A DNA stretch of 64,000 nt from contig DEKJ01000003.1 of NCBI GenBank assembly GCA_002353825.1, positions 17,001-81,000 on the forward strand, written 5' to 3'. The first letter of the stretch is position 1. Each line of letters starts with the position of its first letter. Below the pieces are notes generated by a model that saw only the letters and a program-made list of their open reading frames with translations, made no database searches and had not been told where the DNA came from. Source of the stretch: Prevotella sp. UBA2725. Its GTDB lineage: Bacteria > Bacteroidota > Bacteroidia > Bacteroidales > Bacteroidaceae. The position numbers were made by a program, and so were the translations under genes. This document shows, piece by piece, positions 1 through 17,886 of this stretch.

Positions 1-2
1 TC

Positions 3-197
3 AAGAAGAATATCAGTTATGCAACTTTCCATCGTGCCATTGAACAGTTTACTGGACGAAAGATTGGGATTGACACTCCTCAGAAACGCTATGGCGAATT
101 GAAAGACTTTGAATTTCATGGACCACAGAAGGGAAGTTGGGCTAGGGCTAAAGCCATTATATATCATTGGTCTGATATATTTGCATCAGTAGTGTAA
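3..197 (+). CDS. 3' end of hypothetical protein (partial, runs in from window edge)
   Basis: Open frame KKNISYATFHRAIEQFTG...WSDIFASVV* ending TAA 195-197, followed by a terminator hairpin. Confidence 0.6.
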   Translation, partial: KKNISYATFHRAIEQFTGRKIGIDTPQKRYGELKDFEFHGPQKGSWARAKAIIYHWSDIFASVV

Positions 198-223
198 GAC
201 CCACTTCATAACTTTTTTACATG

Positions 224-262
224 ATAAGCAGATAATCGGTGTAATGCTGATTGTCTGCTTAT
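224..262 (+). terminator. Intrinsic terminator
   Basis: ataagcagataatc...gattgtctgcttat stem followed by T-rich tract. Confidence 0.6.
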
Positions 263-362
263 TTTGTTGATATACCGTTAATAAACATTGATTCTCCTCT
301 CATAAAATGGTCGGTTATATTAAGGTATAAATAAGCCGACCAATGTCCCATGGAAATGTCAT

Positions 363-370
363 TACCTTTG
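363..370 (+). promoter_or_regulatory. Bacteroidota -7 promoter element (TAnnTTTG)
   Basis: TACCTTTG about 75 bp upstream of ATG 444. Confidence 0.5.
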
Positions 371-443
371 GGCTCGGAATTGGTTCCAAAGAGATTCATT
401 GAGGTTCTGCAGACCTCGTAGTATCAATTTAAATGACATTAAA

Positions 444-779
444 ATGGATATAAACGATTTGAAACAAAAACCTGTGGCAATGATGACAGGAGAGGAACTG
501 AGTTTCCTCATTGACAGCCGTATGGCTACTTGGGCTACTGAGATTGCGAGTCTGAGTCAAAGACGTATCTACTATGGCATTGAAGGCATCGCTCAAATAT
601 TTGGTTGCAGTGTTCCGACAGCCAACCGCATCAAGAAGAGTGGCGTGATAGACGATGCCATCACCCAAATTGATCGTCAGATTGTAATCGATGGCAACCT
701 TGCCCTTGAATTGGCAAAGAAAGTAGGGACCATTAAGGTTAAAGGCGAGAAAACCACGAAAGAGCATGACGTACATTGA
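444..779 (+). CDS. DUF3853 family protein (excisionase-like HTH)
   Basis: KPVAMMTGEEL...YYGIEGIAQIFGCSVPTANRIKKSGVIDDAITQ matches the family typical of Bacteroidota mobile elements; ATG 444 preferred over TTG 399. Confidence 0.85.
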   Translation: MDINDLKQKPVAMMTGEELSFLIDSRMATWATEIASLSQRRIYYGIEGIAQIFGCSVPTANRIKKSGVIDDAITQIDRQIVIDGNLALELAKKVGTIKVKGEKTTKEHDVH

Positions 780-1236
780 TTACATGAATCAGTTCTGGCG
801 CGCTTCTGCTATGGAGTACATGTCCACCAGCGAGGTTGCACTCTACGCTTTCTTAGTGAACGAGTGCAACCAACACCGCTGGAACATGCCAGTGCCATGC
901 TCTACGGTACGGATCTGCGAGATGCTGCACATGTCCAAACAGACACTTTGCACCGCTCGTAAGAATCTTGCCAAGCGTGGACTTATCTCTTTTACTGAAG
1001 GCAAATCACGTCATGTACCGTCTAAATATTCACTACTAATTTGGACGGATAACTTGACGGTAGAGTTGACGGATGGATTGACGGCAAACTTTACCCCTTT
1101 AAAAGATAAAGAGAAAGATAATTATAATAAAAAGGATTCTGTCAAAATTTTAAGCAATGGAAAAGAAACTCACAATCGACGTAGAGGCGTTAAAGAAATC
1201 TCTACTACAGCGTCGCCCTATGAAGGCTCGTTTTAA
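766..1236 (+). CDS. Phage-type replication initiator (winged-helix N-terminus)
   Basis: MTYIDYMNQFW...LYAFLVNECN..W...ICEMLHMSKQTLCTARKNLAKRGLISF, then KDKEKD linker; overlaps a DnaC-like gene. Confidence 0.65.
   Translation: MTYIDYMNQFWRASAMEYMSTSEVALYAFLVNECNQHRWNMPVPCSTVRICEMLHMSKQTLCTARKNLAKRGLISFTEGKSRHVPSKYSLLIWTDNLTVELTDGLTANFTPLKDKEKDNYNKKDSVKILSNGKETHNRRRGVKEISTTASPYEGSF
1042..1084 (+). repeat. Iteron-like T(T/G)GACGG x4, 12-bp period, inside initiator gene
   Basis: TGGACGG 1042; TTGACGG 1054, 1066, 1078; followed by AT-rich 1100-1140. Confidence 0.7.
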
Positions 1237-1822
1237 GTTGCCCATGTCAGAAGACGAGGCGTATGCCTATTTGTTGGCAGCAATGATGGCTGAGGTGGAA
1301 TATCGCCACCGTAGCTTCTGTACTAGCGAGGATATGGAGAATCAACTTCAAGAGATAGCTCATTGGCTTACCTCGTCATCCCCCAAGTTCGGTCTGTTGC
1401 TATGCGGTGGCTGTGGCAATGGCAAAAGCACTATGCTCAGAGCATTCCAACAGTTGCTCAACAACTTGCGTATTCCGAAATCATTCAACGATGGTACATA
1501 CGGAATCCAGATAGTGGATGCGAAATACATTGCATACTTGTGCAAGAACAACTATGAGGCATACCGTAAACTCATCAGTGTAGATATGCTTGGTATCGAT
1601 GATCTTGGCACTGAGCCTTCGGAGGTGATGGATTATGGCAACGTCTATACTCCAGTCATTGACCTGTTGACAAAGCGCTACGAAGAGCAGCTTTTTACCG
1701 TCATCACCACTAACCTCACTCCACAACAAATCCGAGAGCACTACGATGACCGCATCGCAGACCGTCTAAACGAGATGGTGGAGAAAATAGTATTCAAGAA
1801 CGGTACATACCGCAATAATTAA
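1157..1822 (+). CDS. DnaC/IstB-like P-loop ATPase (helicase-loader type)
   Basis: Walker A GGCGNGKS, Walker B LGIDDLGTE, ITTNL and RIADRLNEM motifs. Confidence 0.85.
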   Translation: MEKKLTIDVEALKKSLLQRRPMKARFKLPMSEDEAYAYLLAAMMAEVEYRHRSFCTSEDMENQLQEIAHWLTSSSPKFGLLLCGGCGNGKSTMLRAFQQLLNNLRIPKSFNDGTYGIQIVDAKYIAYLCKNNYEAYRKLISVDMLGIDDLGTEPSEVMDYGNVYTPVIDLLTKRYEEQLFTVITTNLTPQQIREHYDDRIADRLNEMVEKIVFKNGTYRNN

Positions 1823-1855
1823 CTAATTCACAAACTTTTTAAATCTTGTAAAATT

Positions 1856-2398
1856 ATGATTTCAAACATCAAGACCGTGACACTTAGATTGTCACAGAAA
1901 GAATTCAATTTCCTCATGAACGGCGTTAATGCCAAGTTCTTCATGGACATCATGTCCCATCTCACAGCATCGTTTTCTATGGATGAAGACGATACAGATC
2001 CTCAACTCGTGTATGGGCCTACAGCCTTCTTCCATCTCTACGAACTCGCAGAGCGTTGGGAGGTTGCTCCCGAGGATGTGCTCAACATCATGTTCAATCT
2101 GGAGCAGAACGGATTGATAAAGTATTCACTATCCGAGAATGAATTCGCTATCGAGCCATGCATCACAAGTTTCGTCTCAACTGATGATGTGGTGCATAAG
2201 GGGACTAATTGCGACACTCATCTTGATGAACTTTGCTTTGAGATGATGACTAAAAAGCAGATTTTTGAAGCTATCGCTCGTTACGACAGCTTGATCACTC
2301 TTCATTTTCCTATGGTTACCCTCAAAGCATTCTCTCTCAAAAAGGACGGGAATGAGAACACTTACGAGAGCATCAACGGAGTTGTAGTGAATCCCTAA
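1856..2398 (+). CDS. Hypothetical protein of mobile element
   Basis: 180-aa ORF co-oriented, followed by hairpin 2409-2455. Confidence 0.6.
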   Translation: MISNIKTVTLRLSQKEFNFLMNGVNAKFFMDIMSHLTASFSMDEDDTDPQLVYGPTAFFHLYELAERWEVAPEDVLNIMFNLEQNGLIKYSLSENEFAIEPCITSFVSTDDVVHKGTNCDTHLDELCFEMMTKKQIFEAIARYDSLITLHFPMVTLKAFSLKKDGNENTYESINGVVVNP

Positions 2399-2520
2399 CT
2401 GCTAACGGAGAATGGCTGGCTGTCGAGACTCTGCATCAAAGCAATCAGCCATTCTAATTGAGATAAAGATAGGGAAAGGAATGCCACCTAAAGGAGCCTG
2501 AATTGTCGTACTCTCTAAAC

Positions 2521-2607
2521 AAGAAGTGTCAATGTCCGACAATCCGCTTCGCTACTTGCCAGACCGTTTGACCTCTTGCAATACTCGCAGGCTCGCATTG
2601 AGTTGAC
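2521..2607 (+). other. Candidate oriT 1
   Basis: Homologous to 4061-4148 (AAGAA..CAATGTC..ACAA...CTCGCA(G/A)GCTCGCATTG(A/G)GTTGA); each copy lies directly upstream of a mobC. Confidence 0.6.
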
Positions 2608-2646
2608 CAATCCCAGTTATAATTTAACGATAAAACACATCTACAA

Positions 2647-3009
2647 ATGGACAAGATATTAGAACCCAAAGGGCGTAATCCACGTATTACCGTGTGTTAT
2701 ACGCCCGACGAGAACCAGAGGGTTATAGAGATGGCTTCCGCCTGTGGATTGAAGAAAAGCCAGTATATCCATGACACTTCCTTGGGACAGAAGCCAAAGG
2801 TAATGATGAGCAACAAGGAGGCTGATGCCCTGATGTCACTGAAAGCTGCCCGTGGTGAGCTGGTCCTAATTAAGAATGCCCTTCATGGCACTACCCAGGA
2901 ACAGCGTAAGAAGTACTTCCGCAACGAGCAGTTCATGCGCCAATGGATTGAGGGTGTAAACAGCCTTATCCGCAGATTAGTAGAAATAGAAAGTATGTTC
3001 AGAAGATAA
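2647..3009 (+). CDS. mobC: MobC-like relaxosome accessory protein (copy 1)
   Basis: RHH-like N-terminus (RITVCYTPDE...ASACGLKKSQY) directly upstream of relaxase. Confidence 0.75.
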   Translation: MDKILEPKGRNPRITVCYTPDENQRVIEMASACGLKKSQYIHDTSLGQKPKVMMSNKEADALMSLKAARGELVLIKNALHGTTQEQRKKYFRNEQFMRQWIEGVNSLIRRLVEIESMFRR

Positions 3010-3013
3010 TGGT

Positions 3014-3943
3014 ATGATAGCTAAAGCAAGGTCTATATCGCATGGTTCTGCCATGACAAACTATGCCACCAAGCATAATCGTGCAGACATAGTGCTGACA
3101 CGTAATCTTGGCGAGGGACTTACTCCTCTCGCCATGTGGGGAGCAATGGAAACCATCCATCAGAAGTATGAACCGAAATTCAGGCGCAAGCCCGTCACCA
3201 AGCTGACCCTTCGGATGGAGGTTTCCCCATCCCTTGAAGAAACAAAGGGCTGGACACTCAATGACTGGTACGACTATGCGATTCGGTTTCTTGATGAGTT
3301 CAAGAAAGAAGCCCAAGCCAAGGAGGGAAAGAAGCGAGGAAAGAGCAAGTTCAATCTGGACAGAGCACAGATATTTGTATGTCTTCACTTTGATGCGAAG
3401 TCTGGCATTCCTCACCTGCACATCCTCATCAACCGCATTGACCTTGACGGCAATCTGATGAATGACTCCTTCATTGGCGATAGTGTAGTCAAGGCTGCCC
3501 ATGCCATCAACATTGAGCGTGGCTGGGAGTTGCCCGAGGATATTCACAAGGCTCACGAGAAGGAAATAACGGCAGATTGTTACGACATCCTCCGTGGAAT
3601 ACAGAGCTACGACTGGAGTAGTTATAAGCATGGTCTTGAAAGTCGTGGTTACAAAGTCCATGAGCAGCGTGACAAGCAAGGTATCTTGCATGGTTATACC
3701 ATACTTCGTGGCAACTCCCGTTTCAAGTCATCCACTTTGGGTAAGAATTGGCACACTTCAAGTGCAAATGTCAAAGAGAGAGGAAACTCAACATCAAGAA
3801 GAATTGCCGTTTTAATAAAAAATAAGGGAAGAAAAGAAAGGCTTCGCATCACTTTTGAAAATCGGCGATACTCTTTAATATGTCCCCTTTCCCCTAAAGT
3901 TAAGCCCAAAAGAATAAAAAGTAAAGAGATAATAATAGTTTGA
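3014..3943 (+). pseudogene. Relaxase copy 1, probably C-terminally truncated/chimeric after about 3745
   Basis: MIAKARSISHG start, HFDAKSGIPHLHILINRID HUH motif; similarity to copy 2 ends at FKSSTLGK; lacks the GGGGG-GW tail of copy 2. Confidence 0.65.
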
Positions 3944-4060
3944 GCAATAATAAAAGGTGACAAGGGACAATACTTTCTCTTTTCGCCAGCAATACAAATC
4001 TTGATATGTAAAGAGAATTAATCATCATGGTGTACAACCAAACCGATAGCAGTGCTATGC

Positions 4061-4148
4061 AAGAAATACCAATGTCATACAAACGCACTTCGTTTGTCCG
4101 TATGCCAATGGACTTCTTGAACGCTCGCAAGCTCGCATTGGGTTGAAC
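4061..4148 (+). other. Candidate oriT 2
   Basis: Homologous to 2521-2607; upstream of second mobC. Confidence 0.6.
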
Positions 4149-4173
4149 ACTTTTTATAGAAGCAATACTAGGT

Positions 4174-4545
4174 ATGAATAAGAAAAATATAGAAAAGGAG
4201 GCACCGAAATACACGAGCCGCCTGGTAGTAAGGCTTACGCCGCAACTCCATAAGGAGATAGCGGAATATGCAGCCCTTTGCGGACTGACCACAAGCGCAT
4301 ACGCACGCAAGCGGTTGGAGGGCAAATATCCCAAACAACGCTTGACTGACAAAGAAATGAAGGCTTTGAACAGCCTATCGGATGCCAGGGGCGATATACA
4401 AAAATTGTTCGGCTTTCTCAAAGGACGTCCGCTTACGGAACGTGAGAATATTCTCCGCAGCGAAATCTTCATGAAACGATGGAGAACAAGTGCAGAGGTA
4501 ATCTTGAACCGCATGATTGAGATAGAGAAATACTTAACACAATAG
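4174..4545 (+). CDS. mobC: MobC-like relaxosome accessory protein (copy 2)
   Basis: RLVVRLTPQLHKEIAEYAALCGLTTSAYAR; divergent paralog of 2647-3009. Confidence 0.75.
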   Translation: MNKKNIEKEAPKYTSRLVVRLTPQLHKEIAEYAALCGLTTSAYARKRLEGKYPKQRLTDKEMKALNSLSDARGDIQKLFGFLKGRPLTERENILRSEIFMKRWRTSAEVILNRMIEIEKYLTQ

Positions 4546-4559
4546 AACATACGACATAT

Positions 4560-5783
4560 ATGATAGCGAAAGCAAAAGTAATAAGTCATGGCGCAAATGC
4601 CATACGTTACTCAGTAGATAAGGACAAGGCAGAGATTGTTAAGACAAATCTCTTGCCCGATGATATTTCCCCAACGGCAATGTGGGCGAGAATGCTTGTC
4701 TTGCAGAAGAAGTTTGAAGGCAAGTTGAATCGTTATCATCCGCTCAAGCGTAACATGATACGTATCGAGGTTTCCCCAACCTCGGAGGAAACGCGAGGTT
4801 GGACAATGGAGGACTGGCAGAGGTTGGCGAATGACTTTATCCGTGAGTTTGATGCGGTTGACCTTTCAGCCAAGTCGAGGCGCAAGAGTGCAAAGGCTAC
4901 CAATCTCAAAGGCAGCCAATATGTTGTTGCGCTTCATCGTGACAGCAAGAGTGGCATTATGCACCTTCATATTGATGCGAACCGCATAGATATGAGGGGC
5001 AACGTGAATGATGCCCATTATATCTACGAGAGAGCGATGGCTGCTGCCGCCAAGGTTGGGCAACAGCGTGGATGGAAAGATGCCCAAGAGGTAAGCCGCC
5101 AAAATAAGGAAGTGATAACCAATGATTGTCTTTCCGTTTTGACTAAGATGCCGTACTTTGATTGGGGACTATACACAAAATGCCTCACGCAAATGGGATA
5201 TGATGTCAAACTGCGATCCGACAACAAAGGACAAGTGCGTGGATATGCCATCAAGCGAGGCAACTCCATTTATAAGTCCTCGGAACTTGGCAAAGGTCGT
5301 TGTCTGATGCCCTCAAAGATTGAAGGTACTTGGGCAAAACTGCATCATCAAGAATTGGAGAAACCAGTTTCAACTCCAACAAAGAATACCCAACAGCCAA
5401 AGATTATGACTGTTCCCAAACCTATGCCTACTGCGGACAACACTCCAAAGATACGTCACTTCGACTTTTATACGGACGAGTTTCATCATTATCCTGTTGA
5501 TATTCCTCAGAATTGTCTGGATGTCATCGACAAGAATATAGCTTTGGATGCCGACAATGTGTTTGCCAAGATAGGTGATGTGCAGAAGACCGCCATTCTT
5601 CTCTTTGCTGAATACATTGATGCTGCCACAACCATTGCCGCCCAGTCTGGCGGTGGCGGAGGTGGTGCTACCTCAGGTTGGAGGCGTGACAAGGACGAGG
5701 ATGAACTGTCATGGGCGCATCGCTGCGCTATGATGGCTAATTGCCTGTGCAGACCTCGCAAGAAGCAAGGGTATGGCAGATAA
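4560..5783 (+). CDS. Relaxase/mobilization nuclease (full length)
   Basis: MIAKAKVISHG, ALHRDSKSGIMHLHIDANRID HUH motif, C-terminal GGGGGATSGWRRDKDEDE typical of Bacteroidota Mob proteins. Confidence 0.9.
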   Translation: MIAKAKVISHGANAIRYSVDKDKAEIVKTNLLPDDISPTAMWARMLVLQKKFEGKLNRYHPLKRNMIRIEVSPTSEETRGWTMEDWQRLANDFIREFDAVDLSAKSRRKSAKATNLKGSQYVVALHRDSKSGIMHLHIDANRIDMRGNVNDAHYIYERAMAAAAKVGQQRGWKDAQEVSRQNKEVITNDCLSVLTKMPYFDWGLYTKCLTQMGYDVKLRSDNKGQVRGYAIKRGNSIYKSSELGKGRCLMPSKIEGTWAKLHHQELEKPVSTPTKNTQQPKIMTVPKPMPTADNTPKIRHFDFYTDEFHHYPVDIPQNCLDVIDKNIALDADNVFAKIGDVQKTAILLFAEYIDAATTIAAQSGGGGGGATSGWRRDKDEDELSWAHRCAMMANCLCRPRKKQGYGR

Positions 5784-5812
5784 CCGAATGTTCAACCAAC
5801 AACATTGATACT

Positions 5813-6358
5813 ATGCCGATAGGTAAAAGCAAAATCTCGGATATGGATTTCGGATCTTTCGAGAATACGATTGACAAGAATATCGAAGCGAACAAGGCTT
5901 CGGACAAGTTTGACCAACAGCTTCAAGCCTACAAGGATGCTGGCAATAGTTTGACTTCGGCAAAAAGTGGCCTTGAAATGGCTACTGCTTCCATGCATGA
6001 AGCAAAAGACAAATTAAGTGAAGCCTCAGATAAAGCGAATACTGTCACCAAAGCTATTGAAGCCTACATTGGCAAAGTAAAAGACATAACTGTCAAAGCT
6101 AAGGTTGATGATGCCGATATGGAACAGGCAATCAACAACAGGAACAAACTCATTGGCGATGAGTCCAAACTTCTTGAAAACCACCGAAAAGCGAATAAGG
6201 AAATCCTTACTCGCCATTTCTATGACATGTCTAATATGATGTCAAGAAATGAAGGTGTGTGGTTGTCAAATGGTTGGGTGAAGACTTTGCTTTGGATATT
6301 TATTCCATCTATTATTTATACTATAGTGTCTGTCGTTTATTTTATTTGCCATCTTTAA
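5813..6358 (+). CDS. Coiled-coil protein with C-terminal TM helix (mob-associated)
   Basis: Heptad-rich body, hydrophobic C-terminus TLLWIFIPSIIYTIVSVVYFI; start uncertain. Confidence 0.65.
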   Translation: MPIGKSKISDMDFGSFENTIDKNIEANKASDKFDQQLQAYKDAGNSLTSAKSGLEMATASMHEAKDKLSEASDKANTVTKAIEAYIGKVKDITVKAKVDDADMEQAINNRNKLIGDESKLLENHRKANKEILTRHFYDMSNMMSRNEGVWLSNGWVKTLLWIFIPSIIYTIVSVVYFICHL

Positions 6359-6467
6359 GCTACAATATATTAGCTTATTATTTATATCTTATTAACTATT
6401 GTTCATGCAGTTATTTTCCGTAATGGATTATCTTAATATATAAAGCGCAAATTCATTTGTACTAAAC

Positions 6468-8132
6468 ATGGATATAGAAGAACTGATAGAACGAATAAAA
6501 GAAGGAGACAATGTAGCTCTGGAAACATTATATAAAACATACGCTCCGATGATGAGAAATGTATGTGTCAACATAACCAATGAGGACGAGGACATAGTGA
6601 ATGACCTCGTCCAAATGGCGTTTATTCGTGCTTATTATTCTCTCTTCCAACTCCGAGATACTTCAAAGTTTGGAGAATGGGTGGCTACAATTACTAAGAA
6701 TGTTGCTTTGAAACATCTGGCACAGAAACGAAAGATGCGATTTGTTCCCTTTTCAAGTAAGATGGAAGAAGAATTGGAGATAGGTTGTACCTTATCCTCC
6801 GATTCGCTATTGGCAGAAAAGGAAATACATGAGTTGATCGACCAATTGCCTAAAGGATATGGGCGAGTGTTTAGAATGTCTGTTATAGAAGGTTATTCGC
6901 ATCAAGAAATAGCCGAAAAATTGGGCATTGAGCCGCATAGTTCTTCTTCTCAATTGTCAAGGGCAAAGGCTTTGTTGCGTAAGATGATTAACAGAAGGGG
7001 GATGGGGATTGTTATATTTGTATTGGTATGCACTCCTCTTGGCATATATTTGCTCAAAGACAGAGGTAAGGAGGAAATACAAAAAATCAATATAGCCAGT
7101 GAAAAGAAAAATATAATTAGGCAAGTAGAAAACAAAGCCCCTAATAATGCAGCGAATGTGGCTTCTGCAAATTCAGTTGCAGAAATACACTGTAATCAAT
7201 ATGGTGTATCATCCATTATTCCTGAGGAAATTCCATCAAATGATAGCATATATACTCCAAAGGATTCCATACAACATAAGTTGTTGGTTGTAGAAAATAA
7301 TGATAGCATCCTGCTAGATACATGCAAACAACCTTGCATAGAGACAGAGCATTACCTTGCAGACAATGAGCAAACAAGCAAAAAGCATCAATGGCAGTTG
7401 CTTGCAGCGGGTTCTCTTGGCTCAGCTTTGGCTCAGAATGCTTACAAGCTGTTTGTGGGTAATGCTAGTAGTGATTTTGATGGGCCTCAACCTTCTGGCC
7501 CTGAAACATACTCAACTTGGGAGGGTTATTATCATTATCTGCAACAGAATGCGCATGATGATATGTCGAAGAAAGACAAAGCTCTGATGGATATTGCCCA
7601 AAATAATAAGGGGAAAATCGAGGAACATGAACACCACGACAAGCCAGTTACCTTTGGTCTCTCGGTAACAAAATCATTGGGGAATAATTGGAACTTGGAA
7701 ACAGGTTTGCAGTATTCTCTGTTAAAGTCCGACTTCACGTTAGGCGAAGGTGCATATTACATCAATCGTAACCAAAAGGTGCATTATTTGGGAATACCTT
7801 TGCGAGTGTCGTATAAATGGCTTGATGTCAAGAACTGGTCAGTTTATTCTTCGCTTGGCGGTGCTTTGCATATTCCTATATACGGTAAAACCAGCGAAAG
7901 GTATATTGTAGGAAATACTACACCATATATGGATAATTGGCATTTCACACCTTCGCTGCAATGGAGCATTGGCACAAGCATTGGAGTGCAATATAAGTTC
8001 GCTCCTATGTGGGGTGTCTATATTGAACCTTCATTCAACTGGTATGTGCCAAACGGCAGCTCTATCCATACAATTTGGACTGAGCATCCGTTCTCTTTCA
8101 CAATACCTTTCGGCGTTAGGTTTACATGGTAA
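6468..8132 (+). CDS. ECF sigma-70 factor fused via TM helix and linker to an outer-membrane beta-barrel
   Basis: Sigma2 (DLVQMAFIRAY...FGEWVATITKN), sigma4 (GYSHQEIAEKLGI...SQLSRAK), TM GIVIFVLVCTPLGIYLL, barrel HYLGIPLRVSY...GVRFTW. Confidence 0.9.
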   Translation: MDIEELIERIKEGDNVALETLYKTYAPMMRNVCVNITNEDEDIVNDLVQMAFIRAYYSLFQLRDTSKFGEWVATITKNVALKHLAQKRKMRFVPFSSKMEEELEIGCTLSSDSLLAEKEIHELIDQLPKGYGRVFRMSVIEGYSHQEIAEKLGIEPHSSSSQLSRAKALLRKMINRRGMGIVIFVLVCTPLGIYLLKDRGKEEIQKINIASEKKNIIRQVENKAPNNAANVASANSVAEIHCNQYGVSSIIPEEIPSNDSIYTPKDSIQHKLLVVENNDSILLDTCKQPCIETEHYLADNEQTSKKHQWQLLAAGSLGSALAQNAYKLFVGNASSDFDGPQPSGPETYSTWEGYYHYLQQNAHDDMSKKDKALMDIAQNNKGKIEEHEHHDKPVTFGLSVTKSLGNNWNLETGLQYSLLKSDFTLGEGAYYINRNQKVHYLGIPLRVSYKWLDVKNWSVYSSLGGALHIPIYGKTSERYIVGNTTPYMDNWHFTPSLQWSIGTSIGVQYKFAPMWGVYIEPSFNWYVPNGSSIHTIWTEHPFSFTIPFGVRFTW

Positions 8133-8205
8133 TGCTCTCGTCATGCAGTCTTTTGAACTTTTGTCGCCTCTTATTGATAGAAGCACAAAAGTTTCTGAAA
8201 ACGAA

Positions 8206-9276
8206 ATGTACAAGACAACAGATTACCTGCGCAATGGGGTGCTATACCTCAACAATATTCTTCGCCCTCAACATAAGAAACTGAGCACGTTGATGATTTA
8301 TACCACGACAAAATGCCAATCGCGCTGCAAGCATTGCTCCATTTGGCAAAAGCCAGAAGAACATTTGTCGTTGCGTGACATACAGAAGATTATGGCAAGC
8401 CGCTGCGTTACCAAAAATACGGTTGTGGGCTTGGAAGGTGGAGAGTTTATTCTTCATCCTGAATCCACAGCCATCATGGAGTGGTTCATGCGCCACCACC
8501 CCAACTACACCCTGCTATCTAATTGCCTCAATCCACAAAAGATCATTGACGCTGTGCGTAGATACAATCCCCGGCATTTGTATGTGTCGTTGGATGGCGA
8601 CAGAGATACATACAAGGAAATGAGAGGATGCAATGGCCATGACAAGGTGATAGAGGTGGTTGAGGCCTTGAAAGATGAGGTTCCCATTTCTTTGATGTTC
8701 TGCCTCTCTCCATGGAACACCTTCAAGGATATGGACTATGTGATTGGAGTGGCGAGGAAATATAAGGTAGATGTACGCATCGGCATTTATGGCACGATGG
8801 ACTTCTTCAACACCACGGCTGATTTGCTTCGTACAGATAAGACAAACTACTTGCAGAGTATTCCAGACAATATTCATGAGACGGAAGAAAATTTTGATTT
8901 TGTAGCATTGTATGAGGAGTGGAGAAACGGCCATCTGAAACTGCAGTGTCAAAGCATATTCAGCGAACTGGTTATTCATTCTAATGGGGATGTGCCGTTG
9001 TGCCAAAACTTGGGTGTGAAACTTGGCAACATACACAAGCACTCTTTGGATGAGATATTCAATTCTCGCCAAACAGCCCATGTGCAATGCCAATATTCCA
9101 AAAACTGCAACGCCTGCTGGATTAACTTCCATCGTAAGTATGATATCATCTTGTTGCGCAACTTCGAGAAAGTCGTCCCCAAGAAGATGATAGAATGGTT
9201 CTACGGCAAATATCAATGGACAGGCAATGAGAATGACACCTACAAACAATACATGAATCGGATTATCAGAAGATGA
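8206..9276 (+). CDS. Radical SAM protein with SPASM/twitch-like C-terminus
   Basis: CxxxCxxC (CQSRCKHC), GGEFILHP, GDVPLCQ..LGNI, CNACW; start 8206 preferred over 7969. Confidence 0.9.
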   Translation: MYKTTDYLRNGVLYLNNILRPQHKKLSTLMIYTTTKCQSRCKHCSIWQKPEEHLSLRDIQKIMASRCVTKNTVVGLEGGEFILHPESTAIMEWFMRHHPNYTLLSNCLNPQKIIDAVRRYNPRHLYVSLDGDRDTYKEMRGCNGHDKVIEVVEALKDEVPISLMFCLSPWNTFKDMDYVIGVARKYKVDVRIGIYGTMDFFNTTADLLRTDKTNYLQSIPDNIHETEENFDFVALYEEWRNGHLKLQCQSIFSELVIHSNGDVPLCQNLGVKLGNIHKHSLDEIFNSRQTAHVQCQYSKNCNACWINFHRKYDIILLRNFEKVVPKKMIEWFYGKYQWTGNENDTYKQYMNRIIRR

Positions 9277-10313
9277 GATACACAAAGCAATTAATCGACC
9301 GCTACAAGCGTTTCCGAAATACAAGTCTTTTAAGACACGACTATCATGCTAGGTATGCTTTCGTCGGTATAGGCAATCATAGCATGAACAATCTTTATCC
9401 AGTGCTTGCCTTCCTGCATGTGCCCTTGAAGTATGTTTGCTGTAAGTCTGCTGACAAACTGCCTTTAATCGAGCGAGCTTATGCTGGTGTGCATGCCACT
9501 ACTTCCTTGCAGGAAATACTGGCAGACGAAGAAGTGAAAGGCGTTTTTGTCTCAACAGCTCCACAAGCGCATTTCGCAATAGCCACAGAAGTATTGAAGA
9601 GCGGCAAGGCACTGTTTATCGAAAAGCCTCCATGCCAAAGTTTGGAGGAATTGGCGCAACTGTTGGATTTGCAAAAGGCGCATGACGCTATTGTGGAGGT
9701 GGGGTTGCAGAAGCGGAACTCGCCTATCATGCGTCTATTGAAAAAGGAGTTGAAAAAGAGCAAAGCCTCTGCATGCTATAACCTTAAATATCTTACAGGT
9801 GCCTATCCGGAAGGCGATGCCTTACTCGATCTCTTTATCCACCCATTAGATTGCATGACCTATCTGTTTGGCGAAGCTCAAGTGAAATATGCGGAAAGTG
9901 CGGGATGCCATACCTTGATGCTCATTCTTGAACATCGTTGTGCCACAGGCATGCTGGAACTGTCAACTGGCTATTCTTGGAATGACGCAAAAGAACATTG
10001 GACGATCAACACAGTTAGAGGCATCTACGAGATGGACCAATTCGACAGTTTGACCTTTCAGCCCAAGCCCCAAATCATAATGGGCATCCCAATGGAAAAA
10101 ATGTTTCCGTGCGGAAAGACTACCGTCAGTCTGCTTGAAAGAAATAACTTTGTTCCTTTGCAGGAGAATAACCAAATTGTGTCCCAAGGCTATTACGATT
10201 CGATAAAGGGTTTTGTTGATGCCGTAGAGGGGAAGAATATGCGAGTGCCATCTTCATTGGAACACCTAACTCACACCTACTCTTTGATAGAGAATATACG
10301 AACATTAATATAA
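9273..10313 (+). CDS. Gfo/Idh/MocA family oxidoreductase
   Basis: FVGIGNH Rossmann motif, HFAIATEVLKSGKALFIEKPP, DLFIHPLD. Confidence 0.9.
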   Translation: MRYTKQLIDRYKRFRNTSLLRHDYHARYAFVGIGNHSMNNLYPVLAFLHVPLKYVCCKSADKLPLIERAYAGVHATTSLQEILADEEVKGVFVSTAPQAHFAIATEVLKSGKALFIEKPPCQSLEELAQLLDLQKAHDAIVEVGLQKRNSPIMRLLKKELKKSKASACYNLKYLTGAYPEGDALLDLFIHPLDCMTYLFGEAQVKYAESAGCHTLMLILEHRCATGMLELSTGYSWNDAKEHWTINTVRGIYEMDQFDSLTFQPKPQIIMGIPMEKMFPCGKTTVSLLERNNFVPLQENNQIVSQGYYDSIKGFVDAVEGKNMRVPSSLEHLTHTYSLIENIRTLI

Positions 10314-10325
10314 AATGGAGGATTT

Positions 10326-10838
10326 ATGAAAACAACATTATTCGGATGTGTCTTATCAGCACTCATGTTGGCCTCTTGCTCGTCTGAACAAAATGTAACA
10401 GAGCCTGTGAGATTGAGCGACATCGTTAATACTGGGTGTACAAGATCTTTCTCTGCAAAAGAGAGTCGACCTGAGTATTACAGAAGTGAAATGGAAAAGA
10501 AGCCCCAAGTGTCTATTTCCGTTGATAAGAATGGGGTGGCGACCTTCAACTTCACAGACCTTGAAGCTAATTGCATTGTGAATGAATTCCGTCCGTCTGT
10601 AAAAGCTAATGACGGAGAAATCGCCATAGTGTTGATACCGTATACTCCAGACCCGACAGTGGAAGCCGATTGTTATTGCAGATACGATGTAAGTTTCAAA
10701 CTCAGCAATGTGGTATCAGGCAAATACTGCATAAAAATTTATGAGTCGGATTATTATGGCAAATACGACACCGTACATCCATCTTATGAAGGTTTAGTTT
10801 TATTTGCGCCAAACAAGTCTTTTGAATTTGACCTTTAA
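10326..10838 (+). CDS. Lipoprotein of unknown function
   Basis: Lipobox LASC; NTGC, EANC and DCYCRYD cysteine motifs. Confidence 0.8.
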   Translation: MKTTLFGCVLSALMLASCSSEQNVTEPVRLSDIVNTGCTRSFSAKESRPEYYRSEMEKKPQVSISVDKNGVATFNFTDLEANCIVNEFRPSVKANDGEIAIVLIPYTPDPTVEADCYCRYDVSFKLSNVVSGKYCIKIYESDYYGKYDTVHPSYEGLVLFAPNKSFEFDL

Positions 10839-10844
10839 CGATTA

Positions 10845-10883
10845 AAGTCCCATCCGCATATATACTATATGTCGATGGGACTT
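10845..10883 (+). terminator. Intrinsic terminator of cargo operon
   Basis: aagtcccatc...gatgggactt stem. Confidence 0.7.
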
Positions 10884-10925
10884 GTTGTTTTGATTGTATG
10901 GTTGCTGAGTATCACAGAGCATCAT

Positions 10926-11024
10926 TGCGTAAACACACCTAACTCAAACAGTTTGTTTACGCATTGTTTACGCAATTACACAAAAAAAGCAGCTACGAAA
11001 TTCGTAACTGCTTCATTTTCAGTG
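10926..11024. other. Candidate att end: three TGCGTAAACA motifs plus hairpin adjacent to tRNA 3' end
   Basis: TGCGTAAACA 10926-10935 (+), 10954-10963 and 10965-10974 (-); aagcagctacgaa/ttcgtaactgctt hairpin 10987-11013. Confidence 0.55.
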
Positions 11025-11098
11025 TGGACCAGCTAGGGCTTGAACCTAGGACCTCCAGATTATGAGTCTGTTGCTCTAACCAACTGAGCTACAAGTCC
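11025..11098 (-). tRNA. tRNA with CAT anticodon, probably tRNA-Ile2 (lysidine), otherwise elongator Met
   Basis: GGACTTGTAGCTCAGTTGGTTAGAGCAACAGACTCATAATCTGGAGGTCCTAGGTTCAAGCCCTAGCTGGTCCA cloverleaf. Confidence 0.92.
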
Positions 11099-11230
11099 AA
11101 TCGTTGTTAGATGGTGCCACGAAGGCAATATCTAATCGGTTGTGCAAAGGTAGGCATTTTTTCTTGAAGGAACAAATTTTTGGCAAGATTTTCATAGAGT
11201 TTTTAATGGGTAAGAGTGAGATATCATCGC

Positions 11231-11316
11231 GCCTCGTATGTGTCGCGTTTCCGCCTCGTATGTGACGCGTTTCCGCCTCGTATGCGTCGCGTTTCCGCCT
11301 CATATGTGACGCGATT
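11231..11316. repeat. 22-bp tandem repeat x4 (gcctcgtatgtgacgcgtttcc)
   Basis: Units at 11231, 11253, 11275, 11297; related to 35330-35416. Confidence 0.9.
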
Positions 11317-11350
11317 GCGCTACTGCTATCGGTAAGTTTCCGCTACGGCC

Positions 11351-15321: not shown

Positions 15322-16094
15322 ATTCACAATTCACAGTTCACAGTTCACATTAAGGTCGTTCTCACACGGATAAAATGTACGGTTAGTGGATTACAATGTC
15401 AGATGGAAAGATCAACCACAGATGATAGCAATGAAAAACAATAAACTGCAAAAGTAACAAAGTAACATATTAACAGGTAACATTAAGGTCGTTCCCATGA
15501 TGACGGAAGATGCCGAAGTTTAATAAAGATAAATATTGTTCTTATATTATAATAATATTAACAATATATTATTAATATAATAATATATATAGTAAAGAAT
15601 GTTAATTCGAAATCGACTCTCGGTCTTCTCCCGGCTGGCGAGAAAGTATGGAAGGACCTTAATGTGAACTGTGAACTGTGAACGCTGCGCGGCTGCTCCG
15701 GAACTGCATTCGGAGTATGGAACGACCTTAATGTTACCTGTTAATATGTTAACATGTTACTTTTGTAGGGTGGGCAGTTCACCGTAGGGGCGGGATTTGG
15801 CAATGGGGACCGTTCTAAGCGGTACATAGATTGGTCGATCTGTCTTTGTCCCGAAGCTATTTGAGAGACATAGATAATTTTTCTCATAGAAAATTTGGTT
15901 TATTCTGATCCTTTTTCGTAAATTTGCAACTGCATAGGTTCTTCTTGATGCTTGGAGACTTTAAGTCGTTTGGCGAGCCGGTGAGCGTGGGGCGTGAGCT
16001 GCATAATGCCGACTGGATGACGTATGATGAGGCGGTGGAGAGATATTCACAGTTCACAATTCACAGTTCACATTAAGGTCATTCTCACACGGAT
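15322..16094. repeat. Complex of direct and inverted repeats sharing core ACATTAAGGTC
   Basis: A: 15322-15371 (+), 15649-15682 (-), 16045-16094 (+); B: 15450-15495 (+), 15719-15764 (-); very AT-rich 15520-15605. Confidence 0.85.
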
Positions 16095-16150: not shown

Positions 16151-16338
16151 CACGGTGGATGCTTTTAACGTCAATCTCCAGCAACTAATGTTTTGTGTCA
16201 ACATCGCCAACAGGTTGAAATGTATGGTCTATATATGATGTACGTTAAAAGAGATTCAAATCTTACAATTAGGATTGCAGTATATCCAATAAAAGTCTTA
16301 TCTTTGCAAGCAGAAAGGATCCTATAAAGACAGAAGCT

Positions 16339-17886
16339 ATGAACAGATACCCTATAGGCATACAGACCTTCGAGGAGATACGGAAGAATGATTTATATTA
16401 TATAGATAAGACGGACCTTATCTATAAGATCGTTAAAGGCTCGAAGAACAATTTTCTGAGCCGTCCCCGTCGTTTTGGCAAGTCATTGCTTGTCACGACC
16501 TTGCAGTCTTATTTCGAGGGGAAGAAGGAACTGTTCAAGGGGCTTGCCATCGAGAAGTTGGAGAAGGACTGGGTGAAGTATCCTGTCATCCATCTCGATT
16601 TGAGCAGTGGAAAATACTTTGAAATACAGCGAATAAAGTCCACACTTGATCTTCTCTTGTCCCGCTATGAACTCTATTATGGTCTCAATCCAATAGACCG
16701 AAGTGCTTACGGAGATCGCTTAAACAACATCATTCAGACCGCTGTCACAGCATCCGGTCAGAAGGTTGTCGTCCTCATCGATGAGTACGATGCGCCAATG
16801 CTTGACAGCAATAATAAACCGGAACTGCAAGCTCAGATCCGTGACATCATGCGCGATTTCTTCAGTCCGTTGAAGGCGCAGGAAGGTAACCTTCGCTTTG
16901 TCTTCCTCACTGGCATCACGAAGTTCTCTCAGCTCAGTATCTTCAGTGAACTGAATAACATCAAAAACTACAGCCTTGATGACGAGTTCGGTGCGATATG
17001 TGGGTTTACAAAGGAAGAGATTTTAAATACGTTCCATGAGGGTCTCAATGAGCTCGCGAAGGTTAACGGGCTCTCTTTTGATGAAGCAGTGGATAAGATG
17101 CAGGAACAGTATGATGGCTATCATTTTACGCCACACTGTCCTAACATCTATAATCCTTATAGCGTGCTGAATGCTTTGTATGACAAGAAGTTCAGCAACT
17201 ACTGGTTTGCTACTGGTACCCCGACCTTCTTGTTGGAACTGCTTACGGAGAACAATATCGATATGCCTCAATTGGAGGGTATAGATGCTACAGAGGATCA
17301 GTTTGATACCCCGACAGACAATATTAGCAACCCCATTCCTGTATTGTATCAAAGTGGCTATTTGACCATAAAAGACTATGATGAGGGTATCTATACCCTT
17401 GGCTACCCCAACGAGGAAGTGCGTATGGGACTGAACAGGAGTATGTTGAACTACATTGCTCCCCGGTATGGTCTGCGGTCAACGGCTTTTGCAGTACAGT
17501 TCAGAGCTGCCATGCGCAAGGACGATATTGATACAGCGATGGAAGCATTGCAATCTTTCCTCGCCGGTTTCCCTTATGACATTCATCATAATCGTGAGGA
17601 CTACTTCCAGGCTATTCTCTATACGATATTCATAACCCTGGGTTTCACGATCCATGCGGAAGTGAAGACAGCCCGGGGACGTGTCGACCTGCTCGTTTCG
17701 ACAAAGAACAGTATCTTTGTCATGGAGTTGAAGTTGAATCAGAGTGCGGAAAAAGCCTTGGAGCAGATTGATGCCAAGGACTATTCGCTGCCTTTCAAGC
17801 ATGATGGCCGCCGCATCTTCAAGGTTGGCATCAACTTCTCCACGGAGAAGCGAACAGTAGATGAATGGAAATACAAGGAGGCATAA
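16339..17886 (+). CDS. AAA-ATPase-like protein with C-terminal PD-(D/E)XK nuclease domain
   Basis: MNRYPIGIQTFEEIR, SRPRRFGKS, LIDEYDAP, GRVDL...VMELK. Confidence 0.92.
   Translation: MNRYPIGIQTFEEIRKNDLYYIDKTDLIYKIVKGSKNNFLSRPRRFGKSLLVTTLQSYFEGKKELFKGLAIEKLEKDWVKYPVIHLDLSSGKYFEIQRIKSTLDLLLSRYELYYGLNPIDRSAYGDRLNNIIQTAVTASGQKVVVLIDEYDAPMLDSNNKPELQAQIRDIMRDFFSPLKAQEGNLRFVFLTGITKFSQLSIFSELNNIKNYSLDDEFGAICGFTKEEILNTFHEGLNELAKVNGLSFDEAVDKMQEQYDGYHFTPHCPNIYNPYSVLNALYDKKFSNYWFATGTPTFLLELLTENNIDMPQLEGIDATEDQFDTPTDNISNPIPVLYQSGYLTIKDYDEGIYTLGYPNEEVRMGLNRSMLNYIAPRYGLRSTAFAVQFRAAMRKDDIDTAMEALQSFLAGFPYDIHHNREDYFQAILYTIFITLGFTIHAEVKTARGRVDLLVSTKNSIFVMELKLNQSAEKALEQIDAKDYSLPFKHDGRRIFKVGINFSTEKRTVDEWKYKEA

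Follow-up and report, generated by a model that had tools for sequence, protein, structure and literature searches.

The Dma proteins, a family of anti-sigma factors that are dual membrane-spanning, were defined by Pardue et al. in 2024 (PMC10927553). Dma1 is the ortholog of Bacteroides fragilis Reo, the anti-sigma factor of EcfO, and comprises a transmembrane (TM) helix that a disordered linker joins to an eight-stranded OMP_b-brl_2 barrel; experiments showed that it is a single polypeptide, that its C-terminal part is found in outer-membrane vesicles (OMVs) and that proteolytic fragments of it occur (PMC10927553). Its authors propose that these proteins sense perturbation of the outer membrane and are activated by proteolysis (PMC10927553). 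In Dma3 (BT_2778) of Bacteroides thetaiotaomicron a sigma factor is fused at the N-terminus. Proteins that match BT_2778 (WP_011108473.1) along 95% or more of the length were counted as homologs, and such homologs were reported from 10 of 29 Bacteroidota, for the most part Bacteroides and Prevotella (PMC10927553). A follow-up in 2026 describes Dma3 as the most structurally unusual member, with an unknown role, and reports that mutants of dma1 and of dma2 induce bt_2778 together with its neighbour, the methyltransferase gene bt_2779 (PMC13088901 with its supplement). Here we describe a gene of the Dma3 type at positions 6468 to 8132 of a 64,000-nucleotide stretch (the window) of contig DEKJ01000003.1 from Prevotella sp. 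UBA2725, together with its predicted promoters, its adjacent operon and the mobile element that carries it.

The explanation that we favour, and that we hold as a whole to be fairly probable, is that the gene encodes a Dma3-type trans-envelope protein with a built-in extracytoplasmic function (ECF) sigma factor, which drives two predicted promoters, P1 and P2, and is freed by proteolysis. The parts of the protein are as follows.

6468 to 8132, + strand: Dma3-type sigma-barrel fusion gene, ATG start, 554 aa
6528 to 6977, + strand: ECF sigma domain, sigma2 at residues 21-89 and sigma4 at residues 119-170 (Pfam)
7002 to 7058, + strand: single TM helix, residues 179-197, continuous with the last sigma4 helix (AlphaFold2, hydrophobicity)
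7065 to 7382, + strand: polar disordered linker, residues 200-305, poorly conserved
7383 to 7622, + strand: conserved pre-barrel subdomain, residues 306-385, one strand and three helices
7623 to 8129, + strand: eight-stranded outer-membrane beta-barrel, residues 386-554, ending in PFGVRFTW (Pfam, AlphaFold2, Foldseek)

Three Pfam domains were matched above the gathering score, namely Sigma70_r2 (PF04542) at residues 21-89, Sigma70_r4_2 (PF08281) at 119-170 and OMP_b-brl_2 (PF13568; 38.9 bits, cutoff 27) at 394-517, and TIGR02937 also exceeds its cutoff. The N-terminus belongs to the sigma70-ECF superfamily (NCBIfam, E 8.5e-23) and has the features of ECF group 4, with sigma2 and sigma4 domains only. 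In an AlphaFold2 (AF2) model built from a 24-sequence alignment of homologs, sigma2 (predicted local distance difference test, pLDDT, 79-90) and sigma4 (about 60-69) are folded, and one unbroken helix (156-199) runs from the last helix of sigma4 into the hydrophobic segment GMGIVIFVLVCTPLGIYLL, in which the hydrophobic stretch is 19 residues long. The linker (200-305, about 105 aa) is without structure (pLDDT 24-35); it is the sole poorly conserved part of the protein in the homolog alignment and is unalignable between diverged loci at the nucleotide level. A short strand and three helices, the latter starting at residue 321, occupy residues 308-379 and carry WQLLAAGSLGS... and STWEDYYQYLQQ..., and eight long strands (386-553, pLDDT 70-85) complete the chain. 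Foldseek searches of the PDB returned ECF sigma structures for the N-terminus (SigL, sigmaE, AlgU and SigW, including ECF holoenzymes) and eight-stranded barrels for the C-terminus (the OmpA TM domain, OmpW, the N-terminal domain of OprF and Ail). Within the C-terminal PFGVRFTW, residues G549, R551 and W554 do not vary in close homologs.

The conservation of the family is centred on sigma4. Across homologs of 28-64% identity, 19 columns are invariant, and the sigma domain holds 12 of them, namely W71 of sigma2 and 11 columns of sigma4, including the recognition helix HSSSSQL.RAK. This helix (PHSSSSQLxRAK) is nearly invariant in the family, which fits the invariant -35 box described below. The distance from the end of the recognition helix to the TM segment is 5-13 residues in 98 representatives, which is too short to accommodate an anti-sigma domain. 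A first-pass annotation, made from the letters of this stretch, had read the gene as an ECF sigma factor, a TM helix, a disordered linker and an outer-membrane barrel in a single polypeptide and had named structure prediction as a check; the Pfam, NCBIfam, AF2 and Foldseek results all agree with that layout, and the sigma2 and sigma4 domains, the helix 156-199 and the eight strands are recovered in the model. The sigma-fused Dma member that it mentioned is indeed published, as Dma3 (PMC10927553), and the architecture alone is thus not new.

An invariant I-E-E-H-E-H-H-D-K-P stretch is present at 7617-7646 (residues 384-393), at the entry of the first barrel strand. Its alternating His/Glu-rich residues would line one face of the strand and could form a metal or ligand site or a lining of the lumen.

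The same annotation had pointed out that the fusion would fall if it were a read-through or assembly artefact, with homologs split into two genes. We consider the chance that the fusion is a read-through, a frameshift or an assembly artefact of two genes to be close to negligible. More than 2000 homologs were found, and most of the best 120 are full length with the identical three Pfam domains. At E<=1e-30 the family forms 342 clusters at 50% identity, and full-length fusions are found from 96% down to about 29% identity, the lower value among cluster representatives. The 554-aa protein recurs unchanged on nine independent metagenomic contigs, and relatives were located in 414 genomic stretches of species representatives, including complete Segatella copri chromosomes. 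Nothing was found in favour of an artefact apart from the existence of a few short homologs. Five of these were inspected, and they begin inside sigma4, end inside the TM segment or have frameshift tails; they are fragments rather than split genes, as judged from their sequences.

The counts by locus given below refer to the best 80 of these 414 stretches; individual loci and contigs are designated L with a number. The genome scan used the closer of two alignments (A1), as a 43-sequence alignment reaching down to 28% identity was too diverse, and for this reason B. thetaiotaomicron is missing from the 80 loci kept. Because it falls outside these best genomic matches, the identity of the window protein to BT_2778 is probably below about 40%. 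The family ranges over the Bacteroidota, mainly Bacteroides and genera of the Prevotella group. Six loci carry the labels Oscillibacter, Cellulosilyticum, Clostridia, Roseburia, Acetatifactor and Opitutae (L012, L015, L024, L030, L048 and L067); all are contigs of 3-14 kb from metagenome-assembled genomes or bin-derived assemblies. They are most likely mis-binned Bacteroidales mobile DNA, since an outer-membrane barrel makes no sense in monoderms.

The second line of evidence concerns the promoters. Two copies of one motif were identified in the window, each 5´ of a gene of the cassette.

6406 to 6437, + strand: P1, predicted ECF-type promoter of the sigma-barrel gene, about 60 nt 5´ of the ATG
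8144 to 8175, + strand: P2, second predicted promoter copy, in the 73-nt gap 5´ of the radical S-adenosylmethionine (SAM) enzyme gene

P1 consists of a -35 box TGCAGTT (6406-6412) and a -10 box TTATCT (6428-6433). P2 has a perfect -35 box TGCAGTC (8144-8150) and the -10 variant GCCTCT (8166-8171), which also occurs in the close relatives L009, L010, L012, L013 and L016. Comparison of the 120 nt upstream of the homologs revealed a bipartite motif, y-r-TGCAGTC-t-TT followed after ~11 nt by GTATCTATA, which is located ~60 nt from the ATG and is kept whatever sequence stands further upstream. The family consensus is TGCAGTC, about 15 nt and GTATCT, with G-N-[A/C]-TCT as the wider form of the -10 box. 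This layout resembles classical ECF promoters such as that of Bacillus subtilis sigmaW (TGAAAC-N16-CGTA). Counted from the first G of the -35 box, the T residues at -1, +4 and +7 and the C at +5 are 89-97% conserved. Of 71 unique upstream sequences, 60 have TATC at +21 or +22, and GCAG[TA] is found in all 77 upstream regions examined. TGCAGTC was observed on the coding strand within 130 nt upstream of the gene in 67 of the 80 loci, against 0.59 expected.

A strict pattern, TGCAGT-N16-17-TATC, matches at 6406-6432, where 0.26 chance matches would be expected in the whole window. Over 1.35 Mb of loci it gave 135 matches, 68 of them upstream of a sigma-barrel gene; about 58 of the other 67 are directly 5´ of the adjacent gene (radical SAM enzyme, methyltransferase, or the families F10 or F12) and follow the strand of that gene, divergent pairs included. 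Between diverged loci, nucleotide homology sets in precisely at the -35 box (6403-6405), so that the conserved unit is a promoter, the sensor-sigma gene, a second promoter and the enzymes. From these sequence patterns we infer that the fused sigma drives both P1 and P2, which is consistent with the joint induction of bt_2778 and bt_2779. Neither the promoter pair nor the regulon of neighbouring genes is described for Dma3 in PMC10927553 or PMC13088901.

Further strict-pattern matches occur in the window at 16276-16302 (+ strand) and 15424-15450 (- strand), with the -35 boxes TGCAGTA and TGCAGTT. They were treated as probable chance matches on account of these non-consensus -35 boxes. One of them lies 63 nt 5´ of an AAA-ATPase_like/PDDEXK_9 gene (16339-17886), and genes of this family stand directly 5´ of sigma-barrel genes in nine other loci (e.g. 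S. copri L058-L062).

Three genes follow the sigma-barrel gene on the same strand.

8206 to 9276, + strand: radical SAM/SPASM enzyme, 356 aa, CxxxCxxC at residues 37-44 (Pfam)
9273 to 10313, + strand: GFO/Idh/MocA-family NAD(P) oxidoreductase, the start of which overlaps the stop of the radical SAM gene (Pfam)
10326 to 10838, + strand: Cys-rich lipoprotein, 170 aa, no family match; the final cassette gene in the closest relatives (14 loci)

Clustering of the neighbouring genes separated three types of cassette. In type A the sigma-barrel gene is followed by the radical SAM and GFO genes and, in the closest 14 loci, by the 170-aa lipoprotein gene. In type B (32 loci) it lies beside a class I SAM methyltransferase gene on either strand; this is the B. 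thetaiotaomicron arrangement, since BT_2779 is annotated as a class I SAM methyltransferase (PMC13088901 supplement). In type C (7 loci) the neighbour encodes a 352-aa protein (F10) with no Pfam or NCBIfam match. A further neighbour family, F12 (about 940 aa), gave no match in the NCBIfam scan, the only scan made for it. The radical SAM and GFO genes are syntenic in about 30 loci and remain 58-97% and 47-97% identical, respectively, even where the sigma-barrel protein falls to 36-48%. The cassette is modular, as its gene content indicates.

Several observations were made on single cassettes. In L042 the radical SAM-GFO pair and a class I methyltransferase gene occur together, each with its own copy of the promoter motif. 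In L022 (S. copri 1A8_2) the radical SAM and GFO genes are absent, and the second promoter runs straight to the lipoprotein gene. Some genomes hold two paralogous sigma-barrel genes (L035/L049, L059/L081, L041/L051, L031/L034 and L017/L056), and the paralogs of one genome sometimes differ in cassette type. The pairs suggest parallel and possibly non-cross-talking units despite the common -35 box.

The radical SAM protein starts in all type-A loci with the conserved ATGTACAAGACA (MYKTTDYL...) at 8206. Some gene callers place the start at ATG 8143 (377 aa), which lies inside the promoter box cATGCAGTC and is probably an over-extension; we therefore take the protein to begin at 8206 and to have 356 aa. 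The mean column identity of its alignment is 81%, and both CxxxCxxC and the SPASM cysteines are present. As a single query it found no sequence relative in the PDB, its profile gave only a weak PDB match to SkfB (E 2.6e-6), and every match to NCBIfam was far below cutoff.

The cassette was also recovered from bovine-gut metatranscriptome assemblies as a single contig, 6312-10832, at a greater depth than the mobilization (mob) region (28 versus 7.6 in X6); transcript starts are not resolvable in such contigs and DNA carry-over is possible. Its left end at 6312 is a recurrent breakpoint and coincides with the boundary of the homology to L090, which supports movement of the cassette as a block. 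This breakpoint falls inside the 3´ end of the gene of a 181-aa coiled-coil protein that precedes the cassette.

On the explanation that we favour, the sigma factor would reside in the cytoplasm, less than ~13 residues from the single inner-membrane helix, and the disordered ~105 residues would cross the periplasm to the helical subdomain and the eight-stranded barrel in the outer membrane. The sigma domain would recognise TGCAGTC, about 15 nt and G-N-[A/C]-TCT, giving positive autoregulation through P1 at its own gene and, through P2, the radical SAM/SPASM, GFO and lipoprotein operon as output. Tethered, the sigma factor is most likely inactive. A cue at the outer membrane or in the periplasm, possibly failure of or damage to the barrel, would lead to cleavage of the linker, after which a site-2 protease would cut the TM helix and the freed sigma would bind RNA polymerase. 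Release by proteolysis is plausible by analogy, considering the fragments of Dma1, the case of IutY discussed below and the steric limit of a tether of ~10 residues. The 4.5-kb cassette would then be a self-contained unit of sensor, regulator and output, carried as cargo in a variable slot of its element. The first-pass annotation had proposed a one-component sensor; neighbour clustering detected no conserved partner gene upstream of the sigma-barrel gene and no sigma gene conserved next door, and this result, the short tether and the family promoter at the gene strengthen that part of its proposal. It had overlooked the linked operon downstream, which is predicted to be co-regulated.

Several points weigh against this explanation. 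The overall confidence of the AF2 model is modest (mean pLDDT 59). A helix-breaking Pro, frequent in the TM segments of site-2 protease substrates, is present in only 57 of the 98 representatives, and the residue was for this reason not used as evidence of such cleavage. The -10 box of P2 (GCCTCT) and the -35 box of P1 (TGCAGTT) depart from the consensus, and the metatranscriptome contigs attest only the presence of the cassette. Deletion of dma3 in B. thetaiotaomicron gave no detectable phenotype (PMC10927553, PMC13088901).

The most direct alternative is that the sigma factor is active while tethered, with the full-length protein recruiting RNA polymerase to the inner membrane and driving P1 and P2 uncleaved, and with the barrel and linker tuning its activity via conformation or clustering. 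The peripheral position of the sigma4 C-terminus in the holoenzyme counts for this arrangement. So do the inconstant TM Pro and the observation that full-length Dma1 is a stable membrane species (PMC10927553). It is nevertheless quite unlikely in our judgement. Between the DNA-recognition helix and the bilayer there are only 5-13 residues, and the AF2 model runs one continuous helix through them; this leaves little room for the beta-flap and the -35 DNA; moreover, IutY, the sole characterised fused ECF sigma, requires cleavage by RseP (PMC5411451, PMC8999054). Still less credible, though somewhat better than an artefact, is a vestigial sigma domain in a protein that acts as an inner-outer membrane tether or as an OMV-related factor, the motif being read by another sigma factor. 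The induction of dma3 in dma1 and dma2 mutants (PMC13088901), by which Das1 or Das2 could drive these promoters, and the uneventful deletion of dma3 would agree with it. Against this, the sigma domain is the best conserved part of the protein, with invariant residues in sigma4 and in the DxSKFxEW loop of sigma2, and the motif strictly co-occurs with the family, including members on mobile elements in different hosts.

A further possibility concerns the signal and would refine the explanation of a proteolytically freed sigma by naming it: the barrel may report its own assembly, so that failed BAM-dependent folding or loss of outer-membrane integrity leads to degradation that frees the sigma, with no external ligand, as a built-in form of the sigmaE/RseA/DegS logic. 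The minimal eight-stranded OmpA-like fold, which has a canonical C-terminal aromatic beta-signal and lacks large surface loops, speaks for such a signal, and so does the proposal of the Dma authors that outer-membrane perturbation is sensed (PMC10927553). The pre-barrel helical subdomain and the invariant EEHEHHDKP argue the other way, as they could form a ligand or metal site, and we regard this signal, though an attractive option, as rather unlikely.

Compared with described systems, the window protein is closest to Dma3 (BT_2778). The likeness, drawn from the published description, comprises the N-terminal ECF sigma, the single TM segment, the disordered linker and the C-terminal OMP_b-brl_2 barrel; the taxonomic range, mainly Bacteroides and Prevotella-group genera, is common to both, and 32 family loci have the BT_2778-BT_2779 arrangement. 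In contrast to BT_2778, the window gene is followed by the radical SAM/SPASM, GFO and lipoprotein genes instead of a methyltransferase gene and sits on an integrative mobilizable element. Dma1/Das1, Dma2/Das2 and Reo/EcfO share with it the TM segment, the disordered linker, an eight-stranded barrel, the span over both membranes, which is predicted for the window protein, the control of an ECF sigma and a proposed activation by proteolysis. In these pairs a separate ECF21 sigma is bound by the N-terminal ~40 aa of the Dma protein, whereas no sigma-binding segment of the Dma1/Dma2 type is found in the window protein, in which a complete sigma2-sigma4 domain replaces it.

IutY of Pseudomonas putida (ECF243) is likewise a single chain with a cytoplasmic ECF sigma, one TM segment and an extracytoplasmic regulatory part, and its sigma is released by Prc and RseP (PMC5411451, PMC8999054). 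Unlike the window protein, whose outer-membrane part belongs to the same chain, it has a periplasmic domain of the FecR type and depends on IutA, a separate TonB-dependent receptor. The window protein has no FecR match in Pfam, and neighbour clustering found no TonB-dependent receptor conserved beside family members. In Bacillus, pro-sigmaK is a membrane-tethered sigma that is freed proteolytically. The actinobacterial ECF48, ECF52 and ECF53 groups likewise include sigma factors that a C-terminal TM extension holds at the membrane and for which proteolytic release is predicted or shown (PMC8999054). Unlike the window protein, these sigma factors and pro-sigmaK belong to monoderms and have no outer-membrane barrel, and their extension domains are ZAS or carbohydrate-binding.

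The first-pass annotation had also placed the gene on a mobile element, and this holds for the window copy, which lies on a 15.6-kb integrative mobilizable element (IME) between a tRNA-Met 3´ fragment and a full tRNA-Met. The window contains the following parts of the element.

1 to 11023, no strand assigned: right-hand 11 kb of the ~15.6-kb IME (comparison with L089)
399 to 779, + strand: DUF3853 backbone protein (PF12964, E 8.5e-32)
2647 to 3943, + strand: mob module 1, NikA-like gene 2647-3009 and MobA/VirD2-type relaxase gene 3014-3943, 309 aa (Pfam)
4174 to 5783, + strand: mob module 2, NikA/MbpA-like gene 4174-4545 and MbpB-like relaxase gene 4560-5783 (Pfam, NCBIfam)
5813 to 6358, + strand: 181-aa coiled-coil protein with a C-terminal TM segment, which travels with the mob module and not with the cassette
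11015 to 11098, - strand: attR, full tRNA-Met at 11024-11098 (ARAGORN); its 3´ part and 9 nt (11015-11066) are repeated at the left end

Small open reading frames are also present upstream, among the DUF3853 and mob genes, and core fumarate reductase genes follow beyond the tRNA-Met. The contig L089 corresponds to window positions 1-11098 at 99.3% identity and reaches 9.2 kb further left. The left 4.6 kb of the element, outside the window, were read in it and contain attL, helix-turn-helix (HTH)/HipA toxin-antitoxin genes, a tyrosine integrase of 496 aa (a weak Pfam match to Phage_int_SAM_5) and DUF6043. The attL is a 43-nt tRNA-Met 3´ fragment (L089 4607-4650), which stops in the anticodon loop, has four substitutions in the T arm and is not a complete tRNA. 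In L092 a perfect 52-bp repeat of window 11015-11066 is found in the same relative place. By its sequence the element measures about 15.6 kb, has inserted into the tRNA-Met 3´ end and is mobilizable rather than conjugative, given the integrase, two NikA/relaxase pairs and tRNA-Met repeats at both ends and the lack of conjugative transfer genes; the window starts 4.6 kb inside it.

The backbone of the element is widespread, its 156-aa protein being listed in 488 index blocks, and its cargo varies. In L094 a DUF2130/DUF932/type I HsdR segment replaces the sigma-barrel cassette on the same backbone, in L090 an insertion sequence (DDE) transposase stands in front of the cassette, and in L091 and L093 AbiTii-TIR and AAA_14 genes take the place of HTH/HipA at the left end. 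From this comparison the element has two variable cargo slots. The first relaxase has 309 aa in the window versus 411 aa in L090 and L091, and the homology to the 411-aa version stops at 3744; for these reasons the element looks like a recombinant of two related backbones in which the first relaxase is truncated. Bacteroidales IMEs of the NBU or mobilizable-transposon type are similar in their tyrosine integrase, NikA/MbpA-like and relaxase genes, tRNA 3´ direct repeats and variable cargo, and in lacking a conjugation apparatus. The window backbone (DUF6043, DUF3853 and a duplicated mob module) differs in not being matched to a named element, and its cargo is a regulatory cassette rather than a resistance or defence module such as the type I restriction-modification genes of L094.

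With the mob genes of the window as queries, these genes are not family-wide neighbours of sigma-barrel homologs, unlike the two genes downstream, and a binding of the whole family to this particular element was dropped as a reading. Mobility genes were found near 9 of the 80 representative loci, a lower bound that depends on the query set. A different backbone with a Mob_Pre relaxase, a Toprim primase, DUF5906 and Abi_2 lies beside the members L019, L031, L050 and L081.

New here are the promoter pair with its prediction of a compact regulon, the varied output modules and the status of the cassette as cargo of a tRNA-Met IME. For Dma3-type proteins they predict control of the protein's own gene and of one adjacent SAM-dependent enzyme module, and they suggest that the output module differs among subfamilies. 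Tentatively, Dma3-type cassettes could be portable envelope-sensing units, the enzymes of which modify a component of the envelope and which function after transfer among gut Bacteroidales; we hold this broader idea to be possible rather than probable. Each 4.5-kb unit would combine the sensor and its covalently attached sigma with two cognate promoter copies and an output set, either the radical SAM/SPASM, oxidoreductase and lipoprotein genes or a methyltransferase gene. The barrel of such a unit may report its own assembly in the outer membrane, and the unit would work after horizontal transfer on mobilizable elements because no other part of the host is needed. Carriage on widespread mobilizable elements means that gut Bacteroidales in humans, dogs or wolves, and cattle exchange such envelope-response modules. 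For the engineering of Bacteroides, the apparently self-contained pair of sigma and promoter could be of use as an orthogonal switch of expression.

Repeats were observed at the ends of the element. An 11-bp unit, TTGTTTACGCA, occurs twice at 10953-10974, just inside the right end, and a similar unit, AGTTTGTTTACGCATTGTT, occupies the corresponding place at the left end (L089 about 4755-4780); these units may be arm-type binding sites of the integrase. Outside the element, a 22-bp unit, CGCCTCGTATGTGACGCGTTTC, is repeated 4.1 times with 88% match at 11230-11320, between the tRNA-Met and the gene of the fumarate reductase iron-sulfur subunit.

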